Virus record (IMG/VR): IMGVR_UViG_3300029286_000042
Coordinates: 1 to 59,293 of that record
Reading direction: 5' to 3' (one strand)
DNA length: 59,293 nt
From: a virus
Taxonomy: Duplodnaviria > Caudoviricetes
Position 1 is the first letter of the stretch, and each line of letters starts with the position of its first letter. Below the pieces are notes generated by a model. The model ran no database searches. It was given only the letters and a program-made list of their open reading frames with translations, and was not told the origin of the DNA. A program made the translations under genes and the position numbers. Shown here piece after piece: positions 6,984 to 57,019 of the stretch.

Positions 6984-7004
6984 CTTGTCACCCCTTGAGT
7001 CGCG

Positions 7005-7214: not shown

Positions 7215-7244
7215 GCTTGCCCCCTAGGCTCGCAGGCTATTCTA

Positions 7245-9017: not shown

Positions 9018-9033
9018 CCCCCTCCCCTCCCCC

Positions 9034-14369: not shown

Positions 14370-14531
14370 GGCCACTCCCCCTCGCCGCCACTCGCAGCAC
14401 TCCCACAGTTGAACCCCATGATGAAGAGGCGCTCCGCCCACGTCATCCACGGCATCGGATACCGCCACCCCGGGGAAGCATCACCCCGCATCCCGGCTTC
14501 GTAGCCACGCTCCCATGGAGTCCGTCCATCT

Positions 14532-15990: not shown

Positions 15991-16005
15991 GCTCCCCCCC
16001 TCTTC

Positions 16006-16293: not shown

Positions 16294-16732
16294 CGCCCTC
16301 CCCCTTCTCAGCCAGAATGCAGCGGCACATCGGATGCAAAGGAAGCGCCATCTCGTAGTACGGAGGGCGCCCGCTCCCCGGACAAGGATCTGCCTTCGGC
16401 TCCTTCCTGAAGCCGTGGCGGAACATCACGCCGCCCCTGGTCACTGGCCCCGTATGGCTGCACTCCGAACACATGACGTGCCGCTTCTCAGCAGACACCT
16501 TGCAGCCTCCGCGCGCTCCGTTCTCTTTTCAGAAGCGCTTCGGCATCAGGATCGGCCCAGATCATCACTCCACCATAGACCGGGCACTTGAGATCCTTCG
16601 GGAAACATCTTGGCGACCGCCCGGAGACTCGTAGCGCATCGCACGCCTTGCAACGGTAGCTGCGCTCCATCACCTTCGCCCGCGCCCTCTTCGCTCGCCG
16701 CTCCTTGACTCCCATTATCCCTCGCTTCTCTG

Positions 16733-27100: not shown

Positions 27101-27751
27101 CTACACCCTCCCCGGCTTCTCGACGAGCTTCTTGTCGCGCCCCTGACCGACGAGAATTGTCTCCCACTTCAAGACCAAGAGCCACGGATTGAGCCTCGCC
27201 GGCCCGTGTAGGTCGGCGAACCACAGCAAGAAGTCCTCGACGCTCTCCGCCCCCTCTTCTCGGGCATCAGACTCCGTGAGATCGTTGAGTCGCTCCAGCT
27301 GCACGCTCGTCAAGAAGACGAGGAAGCGCGCCGCCCAATTCGGGAGGTGGAGCGATGGGTGACCGCCTTCCAACCGCTTGAAGTGCGCGAGGGTTTCGAG
27401 CATCTCCGGCTCAGGCTCGAACCCGTCGCCGCACACCGGATCAGACGCCGTGAACGTGATACGGCCACCGTGGAACGACCACGGCTCCCTGATCCAGAGC
27501 ATCGACTTCGCGCCACCGTACGGCGAGTCGACGACAACCTCTTCACCAGTCCGCGTATTCCTCAACTCCCACCGCCGCGTGCCGTTGACGGGCTCGCCTC
27601 CCGGAGCCCGCACGATCCACTCATCCGGCCTGATGTTGATCTCCGAGAGGCATGCAGGCATGCGCCGCGTCTGCCACTTCCTCCGCTCGCAGATCGCCCT
27701 CACGCCGCGCTCACACATCAGGAGCTGCTGCTTCTTCTCATCACTCGACAT
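27101..27751 (-). CDS. ASCH/PUA-like conserved phage protein
   Basis: K.QTRR, WIREPW, PSLHLP.WAARF..ERL.D.TE.DA..EG, NPW. Confidence 0.7.
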   Translation of the reverse strand: MSSDEKKQQLLMCERGVRAICERRKWQTRRMPACLSEINIRPDEWIVRAPGGEPVNGTRRWELRNTRTGEEVVVDSPYGGAKSMLWIREPWSFHGGRITFTASDPVCGDGFEPEPEMLETLAHFKRLEGGHPSLHLPNWAARFLVFLTSVQLERLNDLTESDAREEGAESVEDFLLWFADLHGPARLNPWLLVLKWETILVGQGRDKKLVEKPGRV

Positions 27752-30392
27752 CCGACACCCCTTCCTCGCTCACCGCTTCGTAGAACGTCGCCGACCGCTT
27801 GATGAAGACGACCTTCACCGCGCCAGGAGGCCCGTTCCGCTGCTTCGCGACGATGACCTCCGCCGGCACGCCATCGCGCACCCTCCCATCCTCCGGCGGA
27901 CCATCCTGCGAGTCGCCACGGTAGACGAAGAGGACGACGTCCGCATCCTGCTCGATCGCCCCCGAGTTATGATTCACGAGCCCGTCAGCTAACCACGAGG
28001 CAGGACCAGGAACCGTCAGATCGTAGACCTGCTCCTCGCCGTCAGGTTCGATGCTGACTATTGTGTCCCAAAAGAGGTCGTCCGTTGCCGCGCGCCGCAG
28101 CTCCGCATCGTTGAGTATCCTAGCGTAATCTAGGATCGTGCTTCGCGAGGGAGCGAACTTGAAGTGCGCCGATCCACCATAAGCAGTGCCGCGCGCCGAA
28201 GCCATTGCTCTGGTCGTGATACCCTTCGCCACCATCACTGCGCGAACCCTTGAGAAGATCTCTTTTGGAAGTGTGTCGATATTCGTGTTCACCGACGTTC
28301 GCGCGAGCATGTCTTCGAGCCTCCGCGCGTTATCCACGCGCGGGCCGAATGCTCCGACAAACTCAAGGAACCTCCGCTGATCCGGCGAACCTGAGACGTC
28401 CACCGTGTACAAGGTCGATCCCTTCGACGCGACTGTGCGAATCCGCCCAACGATCCTGAATCGAAGCAGCAAAGCAGCGACGTCCTCAACCAACGCGCGG
28501 CTGCACGTAGCGAAATAGACTCTCGCCCGCTCTGGAGTGATACCGCTCGGCGAGACCCATATGCAGCCGTCCGTAGCCCACAGGTGGCGCAGCAAGAGCG
28601 CGATCTGATCATTCCGAAGACAGAAGACGGCACCAGGGAGATGCTTTTCGTGAGATCGCTGGTTCCAGATTCCCAATTCGCGGAGCCAGGCATTCACTCC
28701 GGCACGATGCCATCGGTTCCCGTTGCCTTTGATGACGAGTTGGTGCCAATTCCCACGCCCTGCGTGTCGGGTGGATTCGCAGCCGAATCCACGCAGCGCA
28801 GCGGTCACAACAGCCTCGCTATTCTCTTCGGAAGAGGTAGTGTACCTGAGGGGACGGTGGGTCAGATAACTGCCATCGCCAACAAGATGCCCAAGCAGAA
28901 TGACTTTCTCCTCTTCCCATACCTCAGGAGCAGATGGCTCAGGCGCCACACGCGCCATCGCCATTCGTTCTCCGACCGCCATGCTCTCGATGCGTCGCCA
29001 ACCGCGTCCCGTTAGGAATCGATGCCGTGCAGTCACTCGGATGAAACGCCCGCTTGAGGTGGTTATCTTGAATACAGGCCGCACGCCAACGGGCCACACA
29101 GCATCGCTCTGAGCCCGCACGACAGAGCCGGCTTCCGATACGGCAAGCACTTCCGGAGACTTGCCTGTTAGGTCTGAGATGCTCACGCGCCGCCCATCTG
29201 CGAGCATTACCCTCGTCTCGCCTGTCACGCATTCCCTCAAGTCTGAGAGCCGAGGCCGCTTCGAGTCGCGCTTCTCCACCTCGCGACTGAGCTGCGACAC
29301 GGCGACGACCGGAAGGTTCAACTCGCGCGCCAACTTCTTGAGCGACCGTGTGATGTACGCGACCTCCTGCTCACGCGACGGCGTTTTGACTCCCGCCTCC
29401 ATGAGCTGAAGGTAGTCGACGAGTATCATGCGCAGATCAGGGTATTGGGCACACATCCTCCGCGCCCTAGCTCTGATGTCCACCACCGTCGCCCCCGGCG
29501 AGTCATCGATGAGCATACTGCCCAGGCGCAGACGCGGGACAGCAGAAACGATCTCGCGCCAGTCCTTTGTCTCCAAGAACCCCGTCCGCATCTTGTGGAG
29601 ATCCGTCCCCGATTCTCCAGTGAGCAGGCGTTCGAGCACTTGCTCCTTGGACATCTCCAGCGAGAAGAAGCCGATGGTCCCCTGGCTCTTCGTCAGCATG
29701 TTGCGGGCAAACGCCAGGACGAGGCTCGACTTCCCCGTTCCCGGTCGGCCAGCGACGACGATGAGATCCGACGGCATAAGGCCACCCGTCAACCCATCGA
29801 GCCGAGCGAAGTGGGTACGCACTCCGACACATCTCCCAGGGTCCTTGTGCCGCGCCTCCAACTCGCCGATGTGTTCGACGAAGAACGATTCAGCGGAGAC
29901 GAACGTCCGGCTTGTGCCACGGTTTGCGATGTCGAAGATCTCCGATTCCGACGCGTCGACGAGTTCAGCGACAGGCGACTGTTCATCGTACCCACGCTCC
30001 GCGATGATCCCACCGGCCTCGATCAGCGACCGGCGCATCGCCTTGTCACGGATCACCTTCGCGTAGTATTCGAGCGCCGTTACCGAAGCCCCCCTCGACA
30101 GCAGCTCGTTCAAGTAGAGGCGCCCGCCAGCCCTCTCCATCTCGCCCTGCGCCTCTAGATAGTTCGCGAGGAGGATGACGTCAATCGGCTCCCCTTCAGC
30201 GAACATCTGGACGAGCGCCCGGAAGATGACTCGATGCTTCTGGAGATAGAAGTCCGCCGCCTTGAGCGCCTCAACGGCAAACGGCACACCTTCCCCCTGA
30301 TACAGCAAGCAGCACCCGAGCAGCAGTTGCTCCGCCTCCACATTCTTCGGCAGCTCTCGTACGCCGCCGGCGCCCTCATCTTGCCCCGCCAT
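27741..30392 (-). CDS. dnaB: Replicative DNA helicase DnaB with intein
   Basis: LPKNVEAEQ N-domain, AGRPGTGKS, FSLEMS, VDYLQL, SQLSR, LSDLRE..SGAIEQDAD, KQRNGP. Confidence 0.95.
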   Translation of the reverse strand: MAGQDEGAGGVRELPKNVEAEQLLLGCCLLYQGEGVPFAVEALKAADFYLQKHRVIFRALVQMFAEGEPIDVILLANYLEAQGEMERAGGRLYLNELLSRGASVTALEYYAKVIRDKAMRRSLIEAGGIIAERGYDEQSPVAELVDASESEIFDIANRGTSRTFVSAESFFVEHIGELEARHKDPGRCVGVRTHFARLDGLTGGLMPSDLIVVAGRPGTGKSSLVLAFARNMLTKSQGTIGFFSLEMSKEQVLERLLTGESGTDLHKMRTGFLETKDWREIVSAVPRLRLGSMLIDDSPGATVVDIRARARRMCAQYPDLRMILVDYLQLMEAGVKTPSREQEVAYITRSLKKLARELNLPVVAVSQLSREVEKRDSKRPRLSDLRECVTGETRVMLADGRRVSISDLTGKSPEVLAVSEAGSVVRAQSDAVWPVGVRPVFKITTSSGRFIRVTARHRFLTGRGWRRIESMAVGERMAMARVAPEPSAPEVWEEEKVILLGHLVGDGSYLTHRPLRYTTSSEENSEAVVTAALRGFGCESTRHAGRGNWHQLVIKGNGNRWHRAGVNAWLRELGIWNQRSHEKHLPGAVFCLRNDQIALLLRHLWATDGCIWVSPSGITPERARVYFATCSRALVEDVAALLLRFRIVGRIRTVASKGSTLYTVDVSGSPDQRRFLEFVGAFGPRVDNARRLEDMLARTSVNTNIDTLPKEIFSRVRAVMVAKGITTRAMASARGTAYGGSAHFKFAPSRSTILDYARILNDAELRRAATDDLFWDTIVSIEPDGEEQVYDLTVPGPASWLADGLVNHNSGAIEQDADVVLFVYRGDSQDGPPEDGRVRDGVPAEVIVAKQRNGPPGAVKVVFIKRSATFYEAVSEEGVSDVE
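27966..29231 (-). mobile_element. Intein (422 aa) with LAGLIDADG homing endonuclease
   Basis: Starts CVTGET, block B TARHRF, LGHLVGDG and LRHLWATDG, ends VYDLTV..NHN followed by +1 Ser; in frame with dnaB. Confidence 0.93.
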
Positions 30393-30419
30393 CTCCCTCC
30401 CGCCTGAACTCCTCAACCC

Positions 30420-39858: not shown

Positions 39859-40660
39859 TCCTTCACAGCAGCGGCCCCATCTGGAGCCGCAGAGAAGATC
39901 TCCCTGAACGCCCGTTCGATGCGCGGCAGGAGCCGACGCACCGCTTGCTCAGGGTTCTCGGTGTACTGACTGACGTACTTCCACGCATGCGCGTCGATCC
40001 GCGCCCCGAACAACCGGGCGAGAACCGCCGCCCCGAGTTCCGCTACCGCTTCTTGATTCGCGTCCTGACCTCCCTTCCACTCCGCCTGACACCGAGAGTC
40101 CGCAGCGTGCATCAGCTCGTGAAACAGACCCCCTCTGAATAGCTCAGCAATGTGATTGCCTGCGCCTTCTTCCCGAACGCCCCGAGGTACGGCGCCCCAC
40201 CATTCGGCTGCCACGTCACCGAGATGCCCCACGCCCTCGCCACTTCCATGAGCGGCGGCATCTCCTTCGGCGCAAAGTCTGGAAGCGGCTCGCCTTCCGT
40301 ATCCTCGACACCGAACACCGGGAAGCACCGGAACCCCGTGATGACGACCCGCTCCTCGCCCTTCTCCTGCCCTGGCTTCGCCTTCTCCTCCACCTTCTTC
40401 GTGTTAGGTGCCAAGAGACAGAACGAGTGCGAGCCAGCCTTGACGAAGCGCCCAACCTCGCGCCATTGGTTGAAGGTGCGCGCATCCGCCGTTCCATTCA
40501 TCGCGCAGATCATCCGGTTGCACAGCGACCAACGGCTCAGTGGACGCCCGTCATCGCCAGGGATTGCCGCGATCGCCACGGTGTCGACAAGGACCTCTGG
40601 AGTCCTGAAGAGGTCCGCGAGTTCGCTCAACGCCAGCAGTGCCTTCTCGGTCGTCGCCAT
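39855..40660 (-). pseudogene. ArdC-like antirestriction protein (ssDNA-binding domain + HExxH domain) split by a frameshift near 40130
   Basis: WS..N..ARTFNQW..GR.VK.G..PVF..EDTEG in one frame; FHELMH..EAVAELGAA in the -1 frame; break at GAGGGGGT. Confidence 0.75.
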
Positions 40661-40661
40661 C

Positions 40662-40922
40662 TCACTCCACCTCCAGAGCCTTCCAGGCGTTGTGGCCCGT
40701 GAGATTCCCCATAAAGTCGTAGTGATCGGAGTAGCCACTCTCGTAGTGGACAACCATCCCACCAGCCGAGTGCTCAATCGGATAGCCGGCGACAACCTTC
40801 GACCCGACGACGTGTGCGAGTGTCGTGGCGACCTTCTGCATCGCAATCGCTCGCCCTCTCTTCTCCCAGTATTCGCGCTTCGCCTGGTGGTCGTTCCGCC
40901 CACTGCTCCTGAGTCCGTTCAT
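40662..40922 (-). CDS. Early hypothetical protein
   Basis: Starts at the ATG of repeat cassette 1. Confidence 0.6.
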   Translation of the reverse strand: MNGLRSSGRNDHQAKREYWEKRGRAIAMQKVATTLAHVVGSKVVAGYPIEHSAGGMVVHYESGYSDHYDFMGNLTGHNAWKALEVE

Positions 40923-43086: not shown

Positions 43087-43163
43087 TGGTCGGAGAGGCG
43101 GGATTCGAACCCGCGGCCCCTCGCTCCCAGGGCGAGTGCGCTGCCAGGCTGCGCTACTCTCCG
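43087..43163 (-). tRNA. tRNA-Pro (anticodon UGG), CCA encoded
   Basis: CGGAGAG/CTCTCCG acceptor stem, anticodon loop CCTGGGA, GGTTCGAATCC T arm, ACCA end. Confidence 0.92.
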
Positions 43164-43235
43164 TGCGCCCCGGGTCGCCGTCAATTCTCGCCGCAGACTG
43201 GCTGTCCTCGCCGGCGGTCTGCAATTCCCCGGAGC

Positions 43236-43310
43236 TGGTAGGTCGGACGGGAATCGAACCCGTATCCCAAGGACCACAGCCTTGTGCGCTTCCTTTGCGC
43301 CACCGACCTC
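43236..43310 (-). tRNA. tRNA-His (anticodon GUG), CCA encoded
   Basis: G-1, AGGTCGG/CCGACCT acceptor stem, anticodon loop CTGTGGT, GGTTCGATTCC, ACCA end. Confidence 0.88.
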
Positions 43311-46740: not shown

Positions 46741-46772
46741 AAAAGGAAAGGCGGAGCGCACGGGCCCCGCCA
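46741..46772 (-). terminator. Intrinsic terminator ending the modification operon
   Basis: GGCGGGGC-CCGTGC-GCTCCGCC hairpin followed by TTTCCTTTT. Confidence 0.75.
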
Positions 46773-46799: not shown

Positions 46800-47489
46800 C
46801 TATTCCGTCGGCTTCGCGCTCCCCAGTCGCTCGAACGCCCCCAGGAGCAAGAGGAGAGCCTTGCCCCTTCCGACGACATCATTCATCCCCCCCGAGAGGC
46901 GGATGATGCGGGAAAGCGCCAGCTCGACCTCGGCCTGCTCTAGATCGTTCGCCAGGGTGACGATGAGTTCCGGCTTCTCCTCCCGTGTGACTGGCGCATC
47001 CTTCTTCTGCCCGAACCCATCCCATTTGAACTCCGTGAGCGAGGCTAGAAGAGAGATCCTCGTTGCCGACAGTGGGATGCTACGCGCAAGGTCGTCGACG
47101 CCACGCTTCGCCACAAGCTCCTTGATGACCGGAGCCTGCCTCCCTGCCTCGACATCGAACATCTCGACAAGCTCCTGTGCGATCTTCATCCCCTGCTCAA
47201 CTGTGAGCGGCCCGTGGTTCAGGACCACCACCTCGTCGACCGCCATCTGTTGGAGGCTCACGATGCGATGGTTCCCATCCAACACCTCGTAGCGCCCGTC
47301 CTCCTTCTCCCTGACGTTGAGGTTCTGGATCTGGCCGTTCTGCTTCAAGCTCTCAGACAGCGTGGCCTGTCGCTCCGGGTTCTCACCCCGGAAGTTCCAC
47401 GGCGCCGGATCGCACAACGCGACTGGGAGCACGGTGAGCACCGGAACCGGGAACCGCGGCGCCTTCGCCTTAGCCTTAGCCTTGGGCAT
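46800..47489 (-). CDS. ParB/Sulfiredoxin-like domain protein (paralog 2)
   Basis: PWNFR..LSESLKQNG..LNVRE..GRYEVLDGNHR. Confidence 0.85.
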   Translation of the reverse strand: MPKAKAKAKAPRFPVPVLTVLPVALCDPAPWNFRGENPERQATLSESLKQNGQIQNLNVREKEDGRYEVLDGNHRIVSLQQMAVDEVVVLNHGPLTVEQGMKIAQELVEMFDVEAGRQAPVIKELVAKRGVDDLARSIPLSATRISLLASLTEFKWDGFGQKKDAPVTREEKPELIVTLANDLEQAEVELALSRIIRLSGGMNDVVGRGKALLLLLGAFERLGSAKPTE

Positions 47490-48184
47490 GACTCACCTCC
47501 GGCAGCAGCTTCTCGTCAGGTACTTCCTGTGACATGCGAGCAAGGTGGAGAACAGCTTGGCCTCTTCCATCCTTCCCCCCCTCGAGCGCCAATGGCGCGG
47601 GCGACCGTCGACAACCCATCCACCGCCCCGTCACGCTCGGCCTTGTCGCCGAACAAGAAGGTGAGCGTCGGCCGCTTCTGCTTCCCTCCGCCGCCACCAT
47701 CGCCCTCGCCTTCACCCTCCCCCGGCTCCGGCACCTTCTCGATGCCCCCGAGATCCATCCGCGTGACAATCCCGCGAAGCTCGGCCTCACTCCACCGCGT
47801 CGTGCGCGAGAGTTCCCCGATCGTCACCCCGCTCGCCGTGAGCCGCTCGATCACGAGGCGATGCTTTTCGCGGTCGACATCGAAGTGCGGCAGGAGCTGA
47901 TGGGCGATGAGCTTGCCCTCCTCCTCCGAGATCGGTCCGTGGTTGTAGGCCAGCACCTGCCCGATCTCCAGATCGAGGAACACGTCGAGACGGTGGTTGC
48001 CATCCAGAATCTCGTAGGTGCCATCCCCAAGCTCGCGGACGTTGCACGACTTGATGACGCCGTTCTCTGTCATCGACGCCTTGAGCTTCTGCGTCTTCCC
48101 CGCATCATCCCCCTTGATATTCCAAGGGGCCTTGCGCATTTGTGCCACCTCGACGACCTGGAAGCGTTCGAGCAGATCACTCAT
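47476..48184 (-). CDS. ParB/Sulfiredoxin-like domain protein (paralog 1), probable frameshift in the G7 run at 47575-47581
   Basis: PWNIK..LKASM..NG..NVRE..YEILDGNHR; the +1 frame tail GRGQAVLHL matches GRGKALLLL of paralog 2. Confidence 0.8.
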
Positions 48185-49037
48185 CCCACGACACCCCCCG
48201 CAGCGCCCAGATGCGCGTTAGATCCTTCTCAGCCTTCAGCATCTCCCCGACGTTCCTCCTCAACCGGGCCAACGACGGCCCTGTCCCGCGGCCACGCAGC
48301 GCAGGATCGACTGGTAGATCCGGCTCCTCGCTCAGCCTGTTGTACGCGAACCCCTCTGGATTGCCCGTCCACGTGATGATGATACCGTAGCCCGCACAGA
48401 TCGAAGTCGACGCGCTGTCCACAGAGAACCAGGGCAGAGCGAGCATCTCTCGGAGCCCGGTCACCGCCAGCCCGTGTACGCGAATCCTCCCCGACCGGAA
48501 CGCCTCGACGTGCCGCCCGATACACTCCTCGTAGAACGCCAGGTGCGAGTTTGTTCCCAACCCATTCTGCGGCGAGATACAGAAGCGTGGTCGCTCCTCC
48601 ACCATCCTCTGAAGCCAGGCGAATCCCTCCCCTTGGTGGTAGACCGGCAGACACGGGAGGCCAGCAGCTTCGATCTCCGCCATGTTCTCCCAGCCCTTCT
48701 GCGCGCTGTACTCGACCTCCTTCTTCGTCGGCTTGTCTCCGAACCGCCCCGGAATGACATCCAGGTTGATGAACTCCAGGCACCGCGCTTGGGCGACCTC
48801 CTTCAGCGCCTTGCCGAACGCCACGTAGTCGGCGAGAGGGATTGTCGCTCCCTTTGTCCACGCGCTGAAAGCCCCCGAGTCGATGATGACGTCACCAGGG
48901 AACAAAGCGATCGACGACAGCAGCCGGTCTGCCGGCCCAAGAGTCCGCAGGAAGTGGTACGAGATCAGCATGTGCGGCGTGATCTCTTCGACTGCATCCC
49001 ATCCGAACGAGTTCGCAACAGCCTGGTAGATTCGCAT
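48177..49037 (-). CDS. dpdA: DpdA-like / TGT-fold 7-deazaguanine transglycosylase
   Basis: IIDSGAFSAW..G, NLDVIPG, LPVYHQGE, VHGL, FSVDS; sits in the que operon with a TGATG overlap. Confidence 0.8.
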   Translation of the reverse strand: MRIYQAVANSFGWDAVEEITPHMLISYHFLRTLGPADRLLSSIALFPGDVIIDSGAFSAWTKGATIPLADYVAFGKALKEVAQARCLEFINLDVIPGRFGDKPTKKEVEYSAQKGWENMAEIEAAGLPCLPVYHQGEGFAWLQRMVEERPRFCISPQNGLGTNSHLAFYEECIGRHVEAFRSGRIRVHGLAVTGLREMLALPWFSVDSASTSICAGYGIIITWTGNPEGFAYNRLSEEPDLPVDPALRGRGTGPSLARLRRNVGEMLKAEKDLTRIWALRGVSWDE

Positions 49038-49936
49038 CAGAGTGTGTAGAGGTACGCTCCCACCTCGTAGAAGGGCCAGCCATGCTTGAACGTCCCGAGC
49101 CTCTTGTTCAGAGTCAGCCCGCCGTTCACCCACTGCACGCCGCGCTCTGCGACTTCGCGCAGCACCCAGAGCTTGACGTAGTTTGCCACCTGCGAATGAG
49201 CCCCCTCCACGAAGTGCAGCGTCGCGTACGTCATGTCGAACGCCACGGCGCCGTCGATGTAGAGACAGCAGATCGCAAACGGCTTGCCTTCAACCATCAC
49301 CAACCGGATGTGCGCATCGAAGAACGCCCGGAACTCCTCCAGCCATCTGACGATGACTCGCCAGTACCCGGACGCGACGAACTGCCGAAGGTCGAACGGG
49401 TTCCGCTCAGAGATCCGCCGCGCCTTGTCCGCGGCCCATCGGTCGAAGAGATCCCTCATCACCGGCAAGAACTCCGCGGCGTTCCCCGGCGTCACCTCGA
49501 TGCTCTCGCAGCCATGATCCGCCAGCCAGCGCAACGGGTAGGTGAGGTGGTTGTAGCGACTCTTCTTCCCATCATACGCCTGCGGGTCGAACACTCGCCC
49601 GAGATCCCAGAGTGTCTCCTTCTGCTGCGTACCATGAATCGGAGTCCGTAGCTGATCACTCGACAGCAGCTTCAGCCCCTCCACCTCAGCGGCGAGCCGC
49701 CCCGCTACCACCCCGTCGACGCAGTACGCCGTGCACCCCGTGGTAGTGTCCATGATGACCGCGCCAGCCGAGAGAAACGCGCGACCAGCCCTCATCTGAT
49801 CCAAGAGTCCGTGATACCCGCACAGCACCGGGAACGCGAGGTCGTGAATCCGCGTCCTCGGACTCTCTGCTCGCCACTCTTCGAACGACAAGAGGAGGGC
49901 AGAGTGCTGGTCGCAGAACTCCTGAACCGACGTCAC
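49037..49936 (-). CDS. DUF2156 / MprF C-terminal-like (Fem/GNAT fold) transferase
   Basis: GKK.RYNH, MVEGKPFA, G.QWVN.G..L..FK..WP resemble DUF2156 motifs; coupled to dpdA and queF. Confidence 0.55.
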   Translation of the reverse strand: MTSVQEFCDQHSALLLSFEEWRAESPRTRIHDLAFPVLCGYHGLLDQMRAGRAFLSAGAVIMDTTTGCTAYCVDGVVAGRLAAEVEGLKLLSSDQLRTPIHGTQQKETLWDLGRVFDPQAYDGKKSRYNHLTYPLRWLADHGCESIEVTPGNAAEFLPVMRDLFDRWAADKARRISERNPFDLRQFVASGYWRVIVRWLEEFRAFFDAHIRLVMVEGKPFAICCLYIDGAVAFDMTYATLHFVEGAHSQVANYVKLWVLREVAERGVQWVNGGLTLNKRLGTFKHGWPFYEVGAYLYTL

Positions 49937-49937
49937 G

Positions 49938-50366
49938 CTATTCCTCCGCCGCCTCTTCCTTCCCACTCTCCGCCACCACCCGCGTCGTGATCCCGCCGCG
50001 AGCGTTGAAGTCCCCGACGACCATGATCCACCGCGGACTGAGGAGCGCCACAAGGTCGTCGCAGATCTTGTTCGTGATCGACTCCATGAATCCCTGGAAG
50101 CTGCGGAAGGCGAAGAGGTAGAGCTTCAGCGACTTCGACTCGACGCACAACTCGCGCGGCTGGTAGACGATGGTGATCGTCGCGAAGTCAGGCTGACCGG
50201 TCACCGGACACAGAGACGTGAACTCCGCAGTCTGAAACTCGACTTTGTACGGACGCCCCGGCGCCTTGTTCGAGAACGTCTCCAAGATCGAGACATCCGG
50301 CGCCGTCGGGTAGCGCGTCTCCTTCGCCCCCAACGATTGCAGCCCCTCTCCTTCCCTCTGCGTCAT
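49938..50366 (-). CDS. queF: NADPH-dependent preQ0 reductase QueF (unimodular)
   Basis: EFTSLCPVTGQPDF and QueF motif ESKSLKLYL, RGGI. Confidence 0.93.
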   Translation of the reverse strand: MTQREGEGLQSLGAKETRYPTAPDVSILETFSNKAPGRPYKVEFQTAEFTSLCPVTGQPDFATITIVYQPRELCVESKSLKLYLFAFRSFQGFMESITNKICDDLVALLSPRWIMVVGDFNARGGITTRVVAESGKEEAAEE

Positions 50367-50953
50367 CTCCGTCCTCCTTCGATCAGGCTGAAGAACTCCG
50401 CTCGCGTCGTCGGCTCATCTCGGAACGTCCCGAGAAGGCACGACGTCGCCATCTCTCCCTCAGACTCCGCGCCGCGGAACCTCATGCAACTGTGCGTCGC
50501 TCGGACTACCACCCCGACACCCGCCGGCCTGAGAACCGGGTGCCCAGCCAACGCCTCCGCGATCTGCTGCGTCATGCGCTCCTGGATCTGGAAGCGCCTA
50601 GCGAACGCCTTGACGAGACGGGCGATCTTCGACAAGCCGACAACCTTTCCCCCCGACGGCAAGTAGCCGACGGACACCGTTCCCCAGAACGGCATGAGGT
50701 GATGCTCGCACGTCGAGACGAAGTCGATGTCCCTGACCACCACCATCTGGTCGTAGGACGAGGAGAACACACGACTGAGGAGCGCATCGACGTCCACCGC
50801 CGCGCCGCTCGTCAGCTCCTCCCACATCCGAGCGATGCGCTCTGGCGTTCCCCGGAGGCCATCACTCTGCGCCATCTCCTCGCCGACGAGCAGTGTCACA
50901 GCCTCCCCGAGCTTCTCGACCAACGCCTGATGCGCCATCTTCTGTTGTGCCAT
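50363..50953 (-). CDS. folE: GTP cyclohydrolase I
   Basis: TPERIA, CEHHLMPF, GLSKIARL, QIQERMT, HSCM..RG. Confidence 0.95.
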   Translation of the reverse strand: MAQQKMAHQALVEKLGEAVTLLVGEEMAQSDGLRGTPERIARMWEELTSGAAVDVDALLSRVFSSSYDQMVVVRDIDFVSTCEHHLMPFWGTVSVGYLPSGGKVVGLSKIARLVKAFARRFQIQERMTQQIAEALAGHPVLRPAGVGVVVRATHSCMRFRGAESEGEMATSCLLGTFRDEPTTRAEFFSLIEGGRR

Positions 50954-50963
50954 TTGTGCTCCC

Positions 50964-51578
50964 TCACCTGATCCCCAACAGCTTGTGCAGTTGGACGCTG
51001 ACCCGCCATCCTTCGACACGATACGCGAGTTCCAGCGCCCGCCTGACGTTGTCCTGATTGATCTCCCATCCATCAAACACCGGCGACAGGATGTGCTCCG
51101 CATCAGGATACGCAGAACGCAAGTGCAAGAGCCAACCTTCCCCCGTCTCCTTCGTCACCGGGACGCGGATCTCGTCCACCTCTCGCGCCACGCTCGCATC
51201 GAGCGGCGCCCCAACCTTCGGGCTGACCGTCACCCAGTCGAGTTCGTCCTCCGGGATACAGAGCGTGCCGTTCGTTTCGAGCCCTTGCCACCATCCTAGG
51301 TGGTGGAATCCAGAGAGTAGCTCGCCACTCAGCTGGAGGAGAGGCTCACCGCCCGTGAAGATCACCCGCTTGCTCGTTCCGTAGAGATCGGCAGCACGCG
51401 CCTGATTGATGATCTCCTCCGCGCTCATCTCCACGACATCCGTCACCGGCTGATCGCACCACGGGCACTGGAGGTTGCAGCCTGCGAATCGTACGAAGAC
51501 CACCGGCACCCCGACGTTCGCCCCTTCGCCCTGGAGCGAGTAGAAGATCTCCATGATCCTGTAGCTCTTCTCAGGCAT
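50964..51578 (-). CDS. queE: 7-carboxy-7-deazaguanine synthase (radical SAM)
   Basis: EIFYSLQGEG, GCNLQCPWCD, TGGEP, ETNGT, VSPK, QLHK. Confidence 0.95.
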   Translation of the reverse strand: MPEKSYRIMEIFYSLQGEGANVGVPVVFVRFAGCNLQCPWCDQPVTDVVEMSAEEIINQARAADLYGTSKRVIFTGGEPLLQLSGELLSGFHHLGWWQGLETNGTLCIPEDELDWVTVSPKVGAPLDASVAREVDEIRVPVTKETGEGWLLHLRSAYPDAEHILSPVFDGWEINQDNVRRALELAYRVEGWRVSVQLHKLLGIR

Positions 51579-51954
51579 AGCACGGCCCCTCAGTCATCCC
51601 ACCGATCACTGCTTGCGCGTAGCTTCCGACCGTCTCCCAGACCCTGACGCAGGCCCCATGCTTCTCCCCGCCACACGGAAGCGAGAAGATGTGCGCAGCG
51701 ATGATCCTCGCCATGTTCTCCGCCGTCGGCTCCACACCCTTCTTGAACTGCGGCATGTCATTGAGGAGCTGATGGTCGAAGAGGCGCACCAGCGCGCCGA
51801 TCTTCGCGAAGTCGACCAGCATCCCATCCGTTCCGATCGCCCCATCGACCCAGACCTCGACCTTGTACGAGTGCCCGTGCATCCGCTGGCATGCCCCCTC
51901 GTACTCAGGCAGCTTGTGGGCCGCTTCGATCATCAGCGTCTTGTAGACTCGCAT
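51571..51954 (-). CDS. queD: 6-carboxytetrahydropterin synthase
   Basis: AAH.L..C..MHGHSY, DF, DH..LN, PTAEN, WET. Confidence 0.95.
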   Translation of the reverse strand: MRVYKTLMIEAAHKLPEYEGACQRMHGHSYKVEVWVDGAIGTDGMLVDFAKIGALVRLFDHQLLNDMPQFKKGVEPTAENMARIIAAHIFSLPCGGEKHGACVRVWETVGSYAQAVIGGMTEGPCYA

Positions 51955-52924
51955 CTGTCTCCTCCTTCTCCATCACCCATGCGCGCCTCACTCGTCGGAG
52001 GAACGCCGCTGCCGCCTTTCCGCTCGACCCGCGCAACTCGACCGGCAGGTAGCTGTCGATGAATCGCTTCTCCTCTTCCGTGATCCCCTCGTTCACCGCT
52101 TCCCTGACAGCCGCCGGGAAGTCCTCCGGCGACTGGACATGCCTCCCGATCCCCTCAGAATAGACCCTGCCGAGCGGCGCGTCCCCGCACTGCGCGACGA
52201 CGAACTCTCCGATAAGCCAGTCCGGGAACACCACCGGCACCCCCAGCGCCCATGCCTCGAACACGGTCCCCGAGACATCGCCGATGCACGCCTTCGCGAA
52301 GTGGAGGACGTCGCGCGCCAGAACACTTGACCGCCCCGACACCGCAGGGTGCCCTACCCTGACAATCTCATGCGCCGCGTCGAGCGCCTTCGAGAAGTAG
52401 AGCGGCGGCAGGACGTACTCGCCGATGAACGCACTGTGCGACGGCGCCCAGAGGACAACCGGCTTCGGATTCTTCGCCGCGAGCCTCGCATCTCGAAGAA
52501 CGTGCTGCCCGTAGAACTCTTTGAGCGCAGGATCAGAGGCGAACGCCTGATGCCAGCGGAACGCCTCGTCGAGGCCCGGATGGCCGACCGTCACCATCTT
52601 CGCCCGCTCCACACCTCTCGCCGCCAAGCAGTCCGCGGCCATCGGCCCGGGTACTCCGATGTAGTCGAACTGCGACAGGCGTTCGACCGTCGTCCCCAAG
52701 ACCTTCTGCAAGATCCCGTGCGATATGTAGAGGTCGCAGCACTCCCTCGGCCTCCCGAAGACGTCCGTCTCCTCGCGGAAGAAATGGACGTTGAACCGCA
52801 ACGGGTCCGCAGCAGCCCCGACGCTCACCTCAACCTCAGGCGGCAGGTGTTTGGCAATCGCCCAGACAAACATCGAAACGAGGTGAGCGTATCCAGCCCC
52901 AGGATTGATGAAGTGGACGCCCAC
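51905..52924 (-). CDS. CDP-glycerol:glycerophosphotransferase-like (TagF/GT-B) protein
   Basis: SHGI..K, VGHP.LD, VLWAPSH, HP, GDVSG..FEA..LG.PVVF follow TagB/TagF motifs. Confidence 0.7.
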   Translation of the reverse strand: MGVHFINPGAGYAHLVSMFVWAIAKHLPPEVEVSVGAAADPLRFNVHFFREETDVFGRPRECCDLYISHGILQKVLGTTVERLSQFDYIGVPGPMAADCLAARGVERAKMVTVGHPGLDEAFRWHQAFASDPALKEFYGQHVLRDARLAAKNPKPVVLWAPSHSAFIGEYVLPPLYFSKALDAAHEIVRVGHPAVSGRSSVLARDVLHFAKACIGDVSGTVFEAWALGVPVVFPDWLIGEFVVAQCGDAPLGRVYSEGIGRHVQSPEDFPAAVREAVNEGITEEEKRFIDSYLPVELRGSSGKAAAAFLRRVRRAWVMEKEETDASLQDADDRSGPQAA

Positions 52925-52926
52925 GC

Positions 52927-54051
52927 TTAGAACACCTCCCCGATGACCTGCTCCCACTTCCCTCGCCATGTCCGGTAGTCGAACGCCGAGCGGACCACTT
53001 CGAGCGCACAGTCCGCAAACCGCAGGCGCTCGCCCCGATTCTCGTACGCTCTACGAATCGCCGCCACGAGTTCCGGCACCGTCGGCTGGACCAGGTAACC
53101 GTTGAACCCGTCGACGATCATGTTCGGGAGCCCGCCGACGACCGAGGCCACCACCGGCACACCACTCGCCATCGCCTCCAGGCAACTGAGTGATGTTCCT
53201 TCCGCCCCACGCGTCGGGATGAGCGCGAGATCCATTCCCCTGTAGGCTTCGGGCATCTTCGCCATGTCCAGGCCACGGAACGAGACTCGGCCCATTGCCT
53301 CCTTTGCCAGGAGAGCGATCTCCCTCTTCCATCTTTGATCGCCAGCACCCGACGCCGTGGACCCGAAGAAGTCGAAGTGAATGTCAGGGATCTCAGGGAG
53401 CAAGAGCCGCGCCGCCTCGATCGTCAGGTCCACTCCACGCGCCTCGCATAGTCGCCGTGGGAACATGACGTGGAACCCTTGGTGCACCCCATCCCCGGGC
53501 GTGAAGAGTTGGGTGTCGACATAGTTCGGGATGTAGCAGAACTTCGTATCGAGCCCCGGCGCCACGCCACGGACGTAGTTGATGATGTTCGTGTCATTCG
53601 CCACAACCCTCGCCAATGGCCTGATCGCGTCGGTCACGGCCTTCGACCCCTCTGGCTCACGGAAGGCGTTGCCGGCGGGTCCCCGGAGATCCCACCACAC
53701 ACCATGCGAGACACCGATGCTCCGCTCCTTTGGAGACGGCCCGCCGAGATCGAAGCGGAAGTAGATTGCGCGCTCCACATCCCGTGTCGCCGCTTCGAAC
53801 GCCTCCCCCAGCTTCCCATCAGGCGTGAACAGAGAGGTCGCCACTCCCAACGAGCGGACCTCCATGCGCTTGTAGTAGGCCGTCCATGGCTCATTAGTCG
53901 ACGCCTGGTACACGAGGACGTCGAACCCCATCTCTCGAAGCAACTGGCGAATGTCGACGAGATACCGCTCCCCGCCTCCCATGCACACGGACCCACCCGA
54001 GAGATCGAAGAAGCTCGGCGTCAGGATCGCTACACGCTGCCGCTTAGCCAT
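52927..54051 (-). CDS. Glycosyltransferase family 4 (GT-B)
   Basis: GGGER, IPNYVD, RRL..RG, EGTSLSCLEAMASG.PVV..VGG. Confidence 0.92.
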   Translation of the reverse strand: MAKRQRVAILTPSFFDLSGGSVCMGGGERYLVDIRQLLREMGFDVLVYQASTNEPWTAYYKRMEVRSLGVATSLFTPDGKLGEAFEAATRDVERAIYFRFDLGGPSPKERSIGVSHGVWWDLRGPAGNAFREPEGSKAVTDAIRPLARVVANDTNIINYVRGVAPGLDTKFCYIPNYVDTQLFTPGDGVHQGFHVMFPRRLCEARGVDLTIEAARLLLPEIPDIHFDFFGSTASGAGDQRWKREIALLAKEAMGRVSFRGLDMAKMPEAYRGMDLALIPTRGAEGTSLSCLEAMASGVPVVASVVGGLPNMIVDGFNGYLVQPTVPELVAAIRRAYENRGERLRFADCALEVVRSAFDYRTWRGKWEQVIGEVF

Positions 54052-54698
54052 CTGAAAGGACCTCGCTTCGCCATCTCCACGCAGTCGTCAGGCGTATCTA
54101 GTTCAAGGATGAACTCGCTCGGAACACCGACAGTCGCCACCGCCCCCAACTCCCCGCAGTCGAAGAGATGCCGCTGCTGGAAGCACCACTCCCCTGTGCG
54201 CCCCAAGAGCTTCGCCATCACCGCACGGACCCGCTCCGCCCCCTCCGTCCTCCCCACCGCGAACACGCCGGCGTGATCGCTATCCTCCCTCACAAGCCGA
54301 GAGACCCCGACATCCTCCGCCTTCTCCATCAGCCGCAGCAAGAGGTACGGCGCCACCATCGTATCGCCGTTGATGACAACCGTCGGCGCCTCGATCCGGT
54401 CAGCAACCAACGACAGCGAGTAGAGGTTATCAGACGTCTGCCAGTCAGTGTTGTAGAAGACTTCCAACCGGGAAGAAAGGCGACGCGCCTCTTCCTGAAG
54501 CTCGCTCGCATACCGCCCGCCGACGATCACCACATCCAACGCCTCGCCGCGCGCAAGAGCGACCTCCGTCATCGCTCCGACAATCTCCGCGAGGACCGTC
54601 CTCCCATTCGGCGTGTAGAGGAGGGGCTTTGCCACTCCACCTCTGACGCTCCCCGCCATCCGCCCGCCGTCGCCCGCAGCCAAGATGATTGCCCGCAT
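54030..54698 (-). CDS. LicC/PntC-like cytidylyltransferase (NTP transferase)
   Basis: AIILAAG.G.RM..KPL, YN.DW..DNLYSL, INGD, ELDT..D. Confidence 0.78.
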   Translation of the reverse strand: MRAIILAAGDGGRMAGSVRGGVAKPLLYTPNGRTVLAEIVGAMTEVALARGEALDVVIVGGRYASELQEEARRLSSRLEVFYNTDWQTSDNLYSLSLVADRIEAPTVVINGDTMVAPYLLLRLMEKAEDVGVSRLVREDSDHAGVFAVGRTEGAERVRAVMAKLLGRTGEWCFQQRHLFDCGELGAVATVGVPSEFILELDTPDDCVEMAKRGPFRWLSGSV

Positions 54699-55486
54699 CA
54701 CAGCCCCCTTGTCTCCCCTAGTACCTTCCTCCTGATGACCGCGCTCCCCCGATCCATCAAGAAGACCGCCGCCAAGATCACGAGCATGCACGCCGCAACT
54801 TCCTTCGGCCTGAACAAGCGTATCGACACAAGGAGCGGCACACCAATTCCCCCCGCCCCGACTAGGCCGAGCATCGTCGAGCTACGGACGCAGTATTCCA
54901 GGTAGTAGAGAACATAGCTGATGAGCAGGTAGCTCGTCCCCGGCAACAGGACGTGAACGACGATCTGGAACCGCGACGCTCCATCCACCTTCGCCGCCTC
55001 GATTGGCTCCATGTCTGCGGCCTCGAACGCCTCCGCGAAGTATCTGCCCATCGCCCCGGTGCAGTGGAAGACGAGTCCCAAGACGCCAGGAAACGGCCCG
55101 AGGCCGACCATCGACACAAAGAGCAGCGCGTAGAGAAGCGACGGGATTCCGCGCAGCACGTTGAGCACCATCCGCGCCCCGTGGTAGAGCCACGGCCACG
55201 GACAGACGTTCCGCGCAGCGCACAGGCCCATCACCACGGCACCGAGCGACGCCCAGAACGTCGCAACGAGAGCAATCGCCAAGCTCTCCCCCAACGGCTT
55301 GAGGAGACTCGGCACCTTCGCCCAGGCCGGCGGCCACATCGAGGCGATGTACTGCACGATGTTCGGGAACCCCTTGACCAAAGCGACAGGGCTCGTCTCC
55401 GTCTCCACCATGCACCACGAGACGAGGGCGAGCCCCAACGGCAGGACAAGCCACCAGACACCCCTATGCGTCAGGTGCGTAGTCAA
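54698..55486 (-). CDS. phnE: Phosphonate/phosphite ABC transporter permease
   Basis: PP.W, LRGIP.L..AL.FV..GLGP..G, EAA..DG EAA loop, E..VR.STMLG.VGAGGIG. Confidence 0.92.
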   Translation of the reverse strand: MTTHLTHRGVWWLVLPLGLALVSWCMVETETSPVALVKGFPNIVQYIASMWPPAWAKVPSLLKPLGESLAIALVATFWASLGAVVMGLCAARNVCPWPWLYHGARMVLNVLRGIPSLLYALLFVSMVGLGPFPGVLGLVFHCTGAMGRYFAEAFEAADMEPIEAAKVDGASRFQIVVHVLLPGTSYLLISYVLYYLEYCVRSSTMLGLVGAGGIGVPLLVSIRLFRPKEVAACMLVILAAVFLMDRGSAVIRRKVLGETRGL

Positions 55487-56339
55487 GCTCGTCGACGATC
55501 TGACGAATCACTCCGAACGGGTCAGGAGCCGCCGACGCGAATCCATCCAACGCAAACGGCGCGCACGCTTCCTTCGGCACACTCAACCACGCCGCTGTGA
55601 GTCGCGCGAGAAACTCTGGTGCGAACCCCGGCCGCACGATGACCGCGTTTGTCGGAATCGGGTCCGACTGTAGGGCGACAACGAACTGCCCATCGGCGAT
55701 GTTCCCCGCCGCGAGATTCTTCCCAAGCCGGAAGTCGTTGCAGCACGCGAGATCGACCGTCCCCTGCGCCAGAGCGATGATCGCCGCATCGTGCGATCCC
55801 GCGTAGTAGACCGTGGAGAAGTCCTCATCCTTCAACCCGAGGCGCTGGAGCATCATCCGAGGCACCAAGCCACCCGTCGTCGACGTTGGATCGACATACG
55901 CCAACCGCAGGCCCCTGAGCTGGTCCGCCGTCGCGCTCCCCGACTGAATCCCGAGGTCCGTCCGGGCAAGGATCAGCGCGTAGTCGAAGGGCTGGTGCGT
56001 GTTCGCCTTCACATCCACCACCAAAGCCGAGGCACCGAACAACGCTTCAGCCTGGACCACGTTGAACGCGCCGACGCGCGCAAGGTCTGCGAAGCCGAAC
56101 CTCATCGCCTGAAGTACCGCCGCGTAGTCTGTCGCCACCACGTACTTGACAGGGATGCCGAGCTGGTCACTCACCCACGCAAGGATGGGCCGGAACGCCT
56201 CGACATCATCCGACGCGCTCCCCGACGGCACGTTGACGAAGGTCAGTTCCGATGGATCAGCTTGCTGTCCGCTCGCCACAAAGAGAACCGTCGCCACGAC
56301 CAGCGCGACGACGATGCTGATGCCCGCTACCCGCTTCAT
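55464..56339 (-). CDS. phnD: Phosphonate/phosphite/phosphate ABC substrate-binding protein
   Basis: Signal peptide, DY.AV..AM..G..D.A, DP.STTG.L.P, GSHDA, S.PIP. Confidence 0.9.
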   Translation of the reverse strand: MKRVAGISIVVALVVATVLFVASGQQADPSELTFVNVPSGSASDDVEAFRPILAWVSDQLGIPVKYVVATDYAAVLQAMRFGFADLARVGAFNVVQAEALFGASALVVDVKANTHQPFDYALILARTDLGIQSGSATADQLRGLRLAYVDPTSTTGGLVPRMMLQRLGLKDEDFSTVYYAGSHDAAIIALAQGTVDLACCNDFRLGKNLAAGNIADGQFVVALQSDPIPTNAVIVRPGFAPEFLARLTAAWLSVPKEACAPFALDGFASAAPDPFGVIRQIVDELDYAPDA

Positions 56340-56353
56340 CTCTCCCCCTTCTC

Positions 56354-57019
56354 TCACTCGTACTCTGTCGGGTCTATGACTCCTGCCAACCGGAACGCAG
56401 CACGACGCTCCACGCATGTGCCACAGACGCCGCAGTGCTTCTCCCTCCCATTGTAGCACGACCACGTCAATCCGAACGGCGCACCGACCTCCGCACCCTG
56501 CGCGACGATCTGTGCTTTGGTCATGTAGAGGAACGGCGTGAGGAGCAGGATCGGTTCCCAGTCACAGACTGCGAGCGCCCCAGTCATCGCCAAGACGAAC
56601 GACCCCCGACAGTCAGGGTAGATCGCGTGGTCGCCGGCATGCGCCCCGTACGCCACCGCATTCGCCTGCGAGTTGATCGCGTACGCCGCAGCCGCCGCAA
56701 GCAGCAGCATGTTCCGGTTCGGGACGACCGTGGACTTCATCGAGTCCGCTTCGTAGTGGCCTTCCGGGATCGCCTGGCCGCTCGCCTCGATCAGCGACGA
56801 GCTGTCGAAGATCGAAGAGAGCGCCGACAGGTCGAGCCGCTTCCCTTCCACCCCGAAATGTCGCCACACATCCTCTGCCGCCTGAAGCTCGCGCGCATGG
56901 CGCTGGCCGTAGTCGACGGAGAACGGAAGAACCTCATGGCCTTGTGCCACGAGGCTCGCCAGCAAGACAGTCGAATCTAGCCCGCCGCTGTGAACGACGA
57001 CCACCCGCATGGTCGACAC
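56354..57019 (-). CDS. queC: 7-cyano-7-deazaguanine synthase
   Basis: SGGLDS, YGQRH..E, VPNRN, YPDC, TWSCY..CG.C.TC..R. Confidence 0.96.
   Translation of the reverse strand: MSTMRVVVVHSGGLDSTVLLASLVAQGHEVLPFSVDYGQRHARELQAAEDVWRHFGVEGKRLDLSALSSIFDSSSLIEASGQAIPEGHYEADSMKSTVVPNRNMLLLAAAAAYAINSQANAVAYGAHAGDHAIYPDCRGSFVLAMTGALAVCDWEPILLLTPFLYMTKAQIVAQGAEVGAPFGLTWSCYNGREKHCGVCGTCVERRAAFRLAGVIDPTEYE

Follow-up and report, generated by a model that had tools for sequence, protein, structure and literature searches.

Do genes that stand together in one phage operon also act together on one product? The question is raised by IMG/VR virus record IMGVR_UViG_3300029286_000042, a linear record of 59,293 bases with a CheckV completeness of 57%, which was analyzed over its whole length and is called the window below. 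Fourteen open reading frames (ORFs) run head to tail on its minus strand from position 57019 down to 46800; as read from the translations, neighboring frames either overlap or are separated by no more than 26 nt. They encode QueC, a PhnD-like binding protein, a PhnE permease, a nucleotidyltransferase (NTP transferase), a GT4 glycosyltransferase, a TagF-like enzyme, QueD, QueE, FolE, QueF, a GNAT protein named at first as DUF2156-like, DpdA and two ParB-like proteins. A preliminary description of the sequence had presented these genes as one packed operon for the insertion of 7-aminomethyl-7-deazaguanine (preQ1) into DNA, and had proposed that six of them, the five from phnD to the tagF-like gene and the GNAT gene, build a single large adduct on the inserted base (dPreQ1). 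The 14-gene operon was confirmed and all of the gene names were supported by hidden Markov models (HMMs), PHROGs or predicted folds. The HMM check was positive for most genes; the DUF2156-like and TagF-like proteins gave no HMM match, and their names were upheld by other means.

On balance, the analysis favors a different reading of the six genes, in which the operon would be a mosaic of two functionally independent modules. The GNAT enzyme would belong to the deazaguanine genes (module 1) and acylate preQ1 or dPreQ1, and the five-gene cassette from phnD to the tagF-like gene (module 2) would have a separate role. The gene identities, the folds and the patterns of linkage and dissociation given below come directly from the analysis.

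The Five-Gene Cassette Occurs without Deazaguanine Genes

A metagenome scan with an alignment of the TagF-like protein yielded nine loci, the closest of which, L003, was found on a 12.8-kb contig. By tblastx, L003 was colinear with the window: positions 1619-2948 corresponded to window positions 59292-57961, 3470-7870 (PhnD through the TagF-like gene) to 56330-51974, 8222-9288 to 45950-44846, and 11750-11935 to 44451-44266. When 17 window proteins were compared with L003 by tblastn, amino acid identities were 69% for PhnD, 74% for PhnE, 51% for the NTP transferase, 81% for GT4 and 59% for the TagF-like protein, and none of QueC, QueD, QueE, FolE, QueF, GNAT, DpdA or the two ParB-like proteins was found. 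Pfam analysis of ten flanking L003 ORFs detected CBM_5_12, XhlA, RadC and RtcB and no que family. These tblastx, tblastn and Pfam comparisons show that in L003 the cassette is flanked neither by QueC nor, at its other end, by the 6-kb block from QueD to ParB. The L003 cassette was placed after tail-fibre-like and XhlA-like genes.

Matches to que genes, DpdA or GNAT were present in none of the nine TagF-like loci, and L009 holds one ParB-like gene. PhnE was located upstream of the TagF-like gene in all six loci with upstream sequence (L003, L006, L007, L009, L010 and L011, of which L006, L007 and L011 are near-identical to one another). An NTP_transf_3 gene stood between the two wherever this was checked, by tblastn in L003, L009 and L010 and by Pfam in L007 and L009. 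GT4 accompanied the cassette only in the window and L003. Two tandem TagF-like genes were found in both L004 and L009, and in L004, L007 and L008 the TagF-like gene was followed, at a distance of about 2 kb, by a gene for a UDP-GlcNAc 2-epimerase. Upstream of the L009 cassette (58-2710), a second binding protein and permease (NMT1/THI5-like, BPD_transp_1) flank an NAD synthase gene, and no ABC ATPase was seen among the scanned L009 ORFs. Upstream of PhnD-PhnE-NTP transferase-TagF-like in L007 (74-4364), genes were found for a TET-associated glycosyltransferase (TAGT), a PIG-L deacetylase, an NAD epimerase/dehydratase, a WbqC-like protein and a radical S-adenosylmethionine (SAM) enzyme, which may form a sugar-tailoring cluster for DNA or glycan.

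The reverse comparison gave a matching result. Neither the TagF-like profile nor the PhnE model detected anything in the three GNAT-carrying virus records G001 (85% complete), G002 (18%) and G003 (100%). From the cassette loci without que genes and the GNAT records without the cassette, it follows that the modules dissociate both ways and that the GNAT gene co-varies with QueF and DpdA. Searches for co-occurrence in phage and metagenome contigs therefore bore out the preliminary description for the DUF2156-like gene, which was found with dpdA and queF, and not for the TagF-like block, which was found with neither. The preliminary description had itself named a lack of linkage of the extra block to these genes in related phages as grounds for refutation, and on those grounds the proposal of one giant adduct is refuted for five of its six genes; the sixth, the GNAT gene, stays linked.

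The GNAT Gene Is Linked to que and dpdA Genes

Four IMG/VR scans with sub-alignments of the GNAT family identified 12 loci on 11 contigs, representing eight sequence types; pattern-based locus searches of this kind give incomplete samples. In six of the eight types, the GNAT gene was located within 8 kb of que genes or dpdA, often adjoining QueC or QueF. L016 (G+C content of 38%), a complete genome, carried two ParB-like genes, DpdA, QueF, GNAT, QueC, QueD, QueE and FolE, with the ParB-like genes directly upstream of dpdA. Near the GNAT gene, L014 (28%) carried QueE, FolE, QueC, a CxxCxxCC gene and QueF; L015/L017 (40%) carried FolE, QueC, CxxCxxCC, QueF and DpdA; and L018/L020 (35%) carried QueE, FolE, QueF, CxxCxxCC and QueC. 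L023/L024 (32%) combined GNAT with QueE and DpdA, and L025 (59%) combined it with QueC, FolE and DpdA. Of the remaining two types, one is the weak relative L019, considered below, and in the other, L021/L022 (52%), no que gene was found within 8 kb; its record G006 (90% complete) has QueC, QueF and DpdA about 35 kb away.

QueF scored above its Pfam cut-off in five of five further GNAT carrier records. The carriers range from 28 to 59% in G+C content, and their GNAT proteins are 21-48% identical. The placing of the DUF2156-like enzyme in the preQ1 pathway by the preliminary description is thus strongly supported by conserved que/dpdA linkage in other phages.

A CxxCxxCC gene (PF03692, YkgJ-type) adjoined or lay near the GNAT gene at L014:8876-9559, L015:8834-9484, L018:8793-9395 and L020:10723-11325; the window itself had no PF03692 match. 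According to the available text of PMC10516641, this is the family of the dPreQ1 methyltransferase DpdM. In addition, every member of one ESM Atlas cluster related to the GNAT protein has LPG_synthase_C and 95% also have CxxCxxCC, which was read as a two-domain fusion. Taken together, the neighboring genes and the fusion cluster suggest two activities meeting on one substrate, and in some phages DpdM may additionally methylate the same amine.

Several features of the que genes in these relatives were also recorded. QueF in L014 (9552-11030) and L015 (9481-10962) lies in an ORF of about 490 amino acids and is split by about 1 kb, with Intein_splicing, HNH and helix-turn-helix (HTH) pieces detected by Pfam between the halves in L014. 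By tblastn, the break corresponds to residue 53 of the window QueF, the Cys of SLCPVTGQPD; the sequence looks like an intein at the active-site cysteine in both loci. FolE in L014 (6113-7285) carries an N-terminal HNH endonuclease domain, and a family B DNA polymerase in the same locus (12268-16441) is apparently split by intein-like sequence. The tRNA genes near the GNAT gene were considered as a clue to its donor and were judged uninformative, a nearby array (12 mixed tRNAs) being present in L016 alone; in the window, tRNA-Pro and tRNA-His are located about 6 kb from the GNAT gene.

Predicted Fold of the GNAT Protein

The GNAT gene of the window (49037-49936, minus strand) encodes 299 amino acids from a GTG start one base past the queF stop. 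We assigned it as a dual-GNAT protein of the LPG_synthase_C (DUF2156)/FemX-like type from its ESM Atlas fold and, with its que/dpdA linkage, as a predicted preQ1/dPreQ1 N-acyl (aminoacyl) transferase. The protein is identical to a 299-residue database protein and was also found on a 74.8-kb contig. An exhaustive HMMER search returned 79 proteins at E ≤ 1e-3, query included, of about 280-300 amino acids. Among 42 aligned proteins (the query and 41 relatives), PF09924 was matched by three, at best with 5.1e-6, and Acetyltransf_6 (PF13480) by one. Family members have in common the C-terminal sequence NxG...L..FK..(W/Y/F/L)P, a motif that we liken to the signature of FemX and MprF.

ESM Atlas models of the window protein and of its relative P0010 gave template modeling (TM) scores of 0.69-0.76 to LPG_synthase_C, FemAB and Acetyltransf_6 clusters, with superpositions that span about 250-278 residues, and both members had the two-lobed GNAT fold. 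The nearest clusters also include a 'BioF2-like acetyltransferase' group. Searches by tblastn with the window protein and P0010 against phage records found no match, and searches of viral contigs with single proteins (the window protein and P0009) found no confirmed relative. A pattern scan of 185,579 species genomes with GNAT subfamily A6 found no cellular relative, which for a scan of this type is weak evidence of absence.

Genes for the Insertion of preQ1 into DNA

All six genes expected of a dPreQ1 system (FolE, QueD, QueE, QueC, QueF and DpdA) were found in the window, and this core of the preliminary description was confirmed by Pfam, NCBIfam, PHROG and tblastn. QueC, the 7-cyano-7-deazaguanine (preQ0) synthase, is encoded at 56354-57019 (PF06508, 5.8e-60), and the five-gene cassette stands between it and the remaining deazaguanine genes, all on the minus strand. 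QueD, the 6-carboxytetrahydropterin synthase, is encoded at 51571-51954 (PTPS PF01242, 4.7e-27) and the radical SAM enzyme QueE, the 7-carboxy-7-deazaguanine synthase, at 50964-51578 (PF04055, 1.4e-11; TIGR04508, 3.3e-32, below cut-off). FolE, the GTP cyclohydrolase I, is encoded at 50363-50953 (PF01227, 2e-60), with its start placed at M51 of the longest ORF as read from the translation. QueF (49938-50366) is a unimodular preQ0 reductase giving preQ1, with 157.4 bits to TIGR03139 against a cut-off of 86.9, and 2.5e-31 to PF14489. Its translation contains SLCPVTGQPD and ESKSLKLYLF, the Cys of the former and the latter presumably being QueF active-site motifs.

DpdA, the DNA guanine transglycosylase, is encoded at 48177-49037 on the minus strand and matched phrog_887 (1.6e-37). 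It had no Pfam match, including none to TGT, and a search of viral contigs with the single protein found no confirmed relative. By tblastn it matched 182 phage records in which the annotation reads queuine tRNA-ribosyltransferase or DpdA, many of them with a ParB-like neighbor; the best match, in Arthrobacter phage Mufasa8, was to an annotated enzyme, at 28% identity and with 90% of the query covered. The two ParB-like genes that follow on the same strand are encoded at 47516-48184 (phrog_723, 1.4e-13; ParB_N 19.4 bits) and 46800-47489 (phrog_4715, 1.1e-11; ParB_N 25.0 bits), both Pfam scores falling below the cut-off of 26.3. The second is a weak paralogue of the first, with 66% DNA identity over 171 bases. 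Bacterial DpdA requires a ParB-like ATPase, DpdB, according to the available text of PMC10164549. Two ParB-like genes after dpdA fit this partnership, and the first is a possible counterpart of DpdB.

Gene Content of the Five-Gene Cassette

The first cassette gene (55464-56339, minus strand, like the other four) encodes a solute-binding protein of the PhnD/PtxB family with a hydrophobic N-terminal anchor (PF12974, 2.3e-48). It scored 150.7 bits to TIGR01098 against a cut-off of 112, and 167.9 bits to the PhnD equivalog TIGR03431 against 261.1, below the cut-off. Its closest solved relatives were the phosphite and hypophosphite binders PtxB (5e-22) and HtxB, with PhnD at 3e-11. The second gene (54698-55486) encodes a PhnE-type ABC permease (TIGR01097, 249.7 bits against a cut-off of 216.7). 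A role in the import of preQ0 or preQ1 was considered for this pair and dismissed, since PhnE scores above the cut-off of the phosphonate permease equivalog and PtxB, HtxB and PhnD are the nearest relatives of the binding protein.

The third gene (54030-54698) encodes a MobA-like nucleotidyltransferase (NTP_transf_3, PF12804, 4.5e-9), a putative activating enzyme. Its NCBIfam matches, to GlmU N-terminal and inositol-phosphate cytidylyltransferase models, were weak, and phmmer against the PDB returned two rows at E 0.04 to Yersinia V antigen that were judged to be chance, with no solved relative. In the comparison with the cytidylyltransferases LicC and PntC, the NTP_transf_3 domain was the only feature observed. 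The fourth gene (52927-54051) encodes the GT4 glycosyltransferase (Glycos_transf_1 and Glyco_trans_1_4, both 1.5e-22).

The fifth gene (51905-52924) encodes a TagF/TarL-like GT-B enzyme of a small family seen so far on phage and metagenome contigs only. The protein matched no family in Pfam (including Glyphos_transf), PHROGs or NCBIfam, and its GT-B fold was nearest to TagF and TarL. SHS (H178) and HPA (H207) were invariant in all seven family members, and these histidines are putative equivalents of the catalytic ones of TagF. A pattern scan of the 185,579 species genomes with alignment A1 of this family found none, weak evidence of absence from which the family looks phage-specific, and a search of viral contigs with the same alignment found no confirmed relative. 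At the contig end, the window also carries a truncated UDP-GlcNAc 2-epimerase (2-739, minus strand; PF02350, 9e-52), an enzyme of teichoic-acid and capsule pathways.

Other Features of the Window

The window has a G+C content of about 64% and a GC skew that is negative throughout. It encodes a large terminase, a portal, a head morphogenesis protein, a DnaB-type helicase and a DNA methyltransferase, and is therefore a fragment of a tailed phage. Megablast of the operon against 50,697 deposited phage records found no near relatives. As the preliminary description had stated, the operon ends in a terminator-like hairpin: a stem of eight pairs, seven of them G-C, with a T-rich tail, TTTCCTTTTG, at 46750-46771 on the minus strand, 29 nt beyond the last stop codon. 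There were six terminator-like sites in the region against a shuffle mean of 5.9, so it is only its position that supports the hairpin.

Elsewhere on the minus strand, a DnaB-like helicase ORF of 891 amino acids (27741-30416) is matched by the DnaB profile in two separate stretches and may contain an insertion or intein. The genes for tRNA-Pro(TGG) and tRNA-His(GTG) are located at 43087-43309 within a 314-residue ORF that matched no family and, with tRNA genes inside it, is probably spurious. Candidate counter-defence genes encode a protein with an ArdC-N-like anti-restriction domain (40112-40903, 2.3e-5), the DNA methyltransferase (3171-4652, phrog_67, 3.2e-32) and a SAM methyltransferase (5956-6780).

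Discussion

In the two-module scheme, module 1 would consist of QueC, QueD-QueE-FolE-QueF, the GNAT gene, DpdA and the two ParB-like genes, and preQ1 would be made from GTP. DpdA would swap guanine in phage DNA for preQ1, probably with ParB-like help, as bacterial DpdA does with DpdB. The GNAT enzyme would acylate the free 7-aminomethyl amine, either on the preQ1 base before insertion or on dPreQ1 in DNA. An amide at this position is predicted because QueF yields a primary amine, FemX-type enzymes acylate amines and the known tailoring of dPreQ1 is on the same amine. FemX-type enzymes acylate primary amines and MprF-type enzymes a hydroxyl, both from aminoacyl-tRNA. The most likely donor would be an aminoacyl-tRNA, with an undescribed aminoacyl-dPreQ1 as product. 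The substrate and donor of the GNAT enzyme and its timing relative to DpdA are predictions. Our tentative proposal, to which we give less than even chances, is that a new phage enzyme family moves an amino acid from charged tRNA to the 7-aminomethyl group of preQ1 in DNA. More broadly, QueF and DpdA have in the GNAT gene a conserved partner that had not been described, and this gene is a good candidate source of a new dPreQ1 derivative.

As the preliminary description had it, known tailoring of dPreQ1 is small: in the available text of Cui et al. (2023, PMC10516641), DpdM (YkgJ/DUF3109-like) adds a methyl and DpdN (PF00551) a formyl group to the same amine. The window resembles the phage dPreQ1 pathways of that text in its full preQ1 pathway, unimodular QueF and DpdA, and in an extra enzyme gene between queF and dpdA; L014, L015 and L018/L020 also carry a DpdM-type gene near the GNAT gene. 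Unlike DpdM and DpdN, the window enzyme is dual-GNAT and LPG_synthase_C/FemX-like, and Pfam found neither PF00551 nor CxxCxxCC/DUF3109 in it. The words GNAT, acetyltransferase and aminoacyl were absent from the main texts of PMC10516641 and PMC6884629. In the literature covered, main texts mostly from openly accessible journals, no paper was found that connects 7-deazaguanine DNA with an enzyme of the GNAT, DUF2156 or FemX type.

A functional parallel would be Mom of phage Mu, which is, by analogy, a precedent for tRNA-dependent DNA modification. The available text of PMC13219725 describes Mom as a GNAT enzyme that uses Gly-tRNA(Gly) on double-stranded DNA, and its authors liken its tRNA binding to that of FemX. 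Both would be phage GNAT-superfamily enzymes that acylate an amine of a DNA base, as predicted here for the window protein, and FemX-like handling of charged tRNA is proposed for Mom in the same text. By description, Mom consists of one GNAT domain that carries an HTH-like insertion, and acts with Gly-tRNA(Gly) on N6 of adenine. The window protein is two-lobed and FemX/MprF-type, and would presumably acylate the 7-aminomethyl group of a deazaguanine. In its predicted fold, the window protein resembles the MprF C-terminal domain (LPG_synthase_C) and FemX/FemAB. Unlike these, it lacks a membrane domain and gave no match at the HMM level, and its context is DNA modification, not envelope synthesis.

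Module 2 may be an 'import, nucleotide-activate, transfer' cassette. The PhnD-like protein and PhnE would import a small phosphonate or phosphite-like compound, the NTP transferase would activate that compound or a polyol phosphate on a nucleotide, and the TagF-like enzyme would pass the activated group to a GT4-built sugar on an acceptor other than dPreQ1, with a glycopolymer of the host envelope or a protein of the virion as the likeliest candidate. All of these substrates are predicted. By analogy with known systems, the product of module 2 would be a glycan bearing a phosph(on)ate-linked group. The module's genes (for an importer, a nucleotidyltransferase, a TagF-like enzyme and GT4, with the epimerase elsewhere) follow the same logic as teichoic-acid and capsule synthesis and as the Lic (phosphocholine) and Pnt (2-aminoethylphosphonate) systems, for which import-activate-transfer is described in the available text of PMC6697681. 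Module 2 differs from Lic and Pnt in that its importer is PhnD/PtxB-PhnE without an ATPase and in having no kinase, LicD or Ppm. The TagF-like protein differs from TagF and TarL in its length of about 300-340 amino acids and in having no Glyphos_transf match, and the cassette is phage-encoded.

Several observations weigh against the two-module scheme. In the window the modules are co-transcribed and interleaved, with QueC beyond the cassette. The L003 contig is only 12.8 kb long, and que genes elsewhere in its phage are possible. The L007 cassette is located 7 kb from the TAGT gene (PF20691, 30.9 bits against a cut-off of 27.5). No PhnC-type ATPase was found for the importer: in the window, at its 57% completeness, PF00005 gave only sub-threshold P-loop matches to a helicase and an SbcC-like gene. 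For the GNAT protein, Pfam, PHROG and NCBIfam returned no match, and the profile of its 42 aligned family members gave only chance rows against PDB sequences (E 0.21 and 0.61). Support for its fold comes from ESM Atlas models whose confidence is middling (predicted TM scores of 0.69 and 0.71), since a single-sequence AlphaFold2 model was poor (predicted local distance difference test score of 39.3) and was discarded. In L021/L022 the GNAT gene is located about 35 kb from the que cluster, beside genes for a pyrophosphatase and a PARP-domain protein. A weak relative, L019 (23% identity), is in a record without que genes, but this record is 35% complete. Dual-GNAT enzymes are not uniformly aminoacyl-tRNA users, and the authors of the Mom study state in the available text (PMC13219725) that donor and substrate are not predictable from structure.

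The donor is where the strongest alternative departs from the scheme. The GNAT enzyme might tailor preQ1 or dPreQ1 with an acyl-CoA such as acetyl-CoA, giving N-acyl-dPreQ1. The linkage to que genes and dpdA supports this equally, and the Acetyltransf_6 and 'BioF2-like acetyltransferase' clusters among the nearest in the Atlas would suit it, as would the L019 relative (7908-8981), whose extra C-terminal stretch of about 110 amino acids resembles, by eye, a classical single GNAT domain. However, the best structural matches that reached the naming bar were LPG_synthase_C and FemAB, whose characterized members are aminoacyl-tRNA users. MprF, FemX and PacB are listed as such users in the available text of PMC13219725. 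We consider an acyl-CoA donor unlikely, although it is the alternative that survives best.

The GNAT enzyme might instead have nothing to do with DNA, aminoacylating a lipid or peptidoglycan precursor or acting on tRNA, with its proximity to que genes reflecting shared early expression. The functions of the nearest named families, and the L022 gene that stands away from the que cluster, would fit this. Against it, the gene is near que/dpdA in six of eight types across G+C contents of 28-59% and shares a genome with them in a seventh, the protein is 299 residues long without a membrane domain, its structural alignments spanning nearly the whole length, and the one-subfamily pattern scan of species genomes found no cellular relative. 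We regard a role unrelated to DNA as quite improbable.

A third alternative keeps the two modules apart and gives module 2 a DNA target other than dPreQ1, for example a phosph(on)ate on a glycosylated base. Such a target is conceivable because the L007 cassette is near the TAGT gene (PF20691), with PIG-L, epimerase, WbqC and radical SAM genes also upstream, and the phage-specific look of the TagF-like family would agree with it. No TAGT was found in the window, however, and the first two cassette genes are for a binding protein that is extracytoplasmic and for a permease. A UDP-GlcNAc 2-epimerase gene accompanies it in three other loci and is present in the window, and the L003 cassette follows tail-fibre-like and XhlA-like genes. 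The likelihood of this alternative is low. Lower still, and very doubtful, is that all six extra genes act serially on dPreQ1 (aminoacyl or acyl group, sugar, then phosphonate or polyol phosphate) to give one very large adduct: the single packed operon in which the cassette separates QueC from the other que genes, the coherent chemistry of an amine acceptor with GT4 and a TagF-like transferase, and a DNA-linked sugar as a conceivable acceptor near the L007 cassette are set against a GT4 81% identical, with the rest of the cassette, in syntenic L003 without que genes, GNAT or dpdA at the matching positions, the lack of que or dpdA matches in all nine cassette loci, and the lack of TagF-like or PhnE matches in all three GNAT-carrying virus records, one of them complete.

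Under the favored two-module scheme, PhnD-PhnE-nucleotidyltransferase-TagF-like is a recurrent phage module, and its independence from the deazaguanine genes averts a wrong pathway assignment. How restriction, CRISPR and type IV defence turn out depends on phage DNA hypermodifications, which are also a source of DNA-labelling enzymes, and eight 7-deazaguanine DNA bases are known. With its linkage to QueF and DpdA conserved in at least seven divergent lineages of phages, the FemX/MprF-type enzyme is a directly testable candidate for a new, larger, amide-linked base. If the proposal is true, aminoacyl-dPreQ1 would be the ninth natural 7-deazaguanine base and a much bulkier one. The GNAT enzyme would then extend tRNA-dependent DNA modification beyond Mom, as the second case after Mu Mom in which the translation machinery is used to hypermodify DNA.

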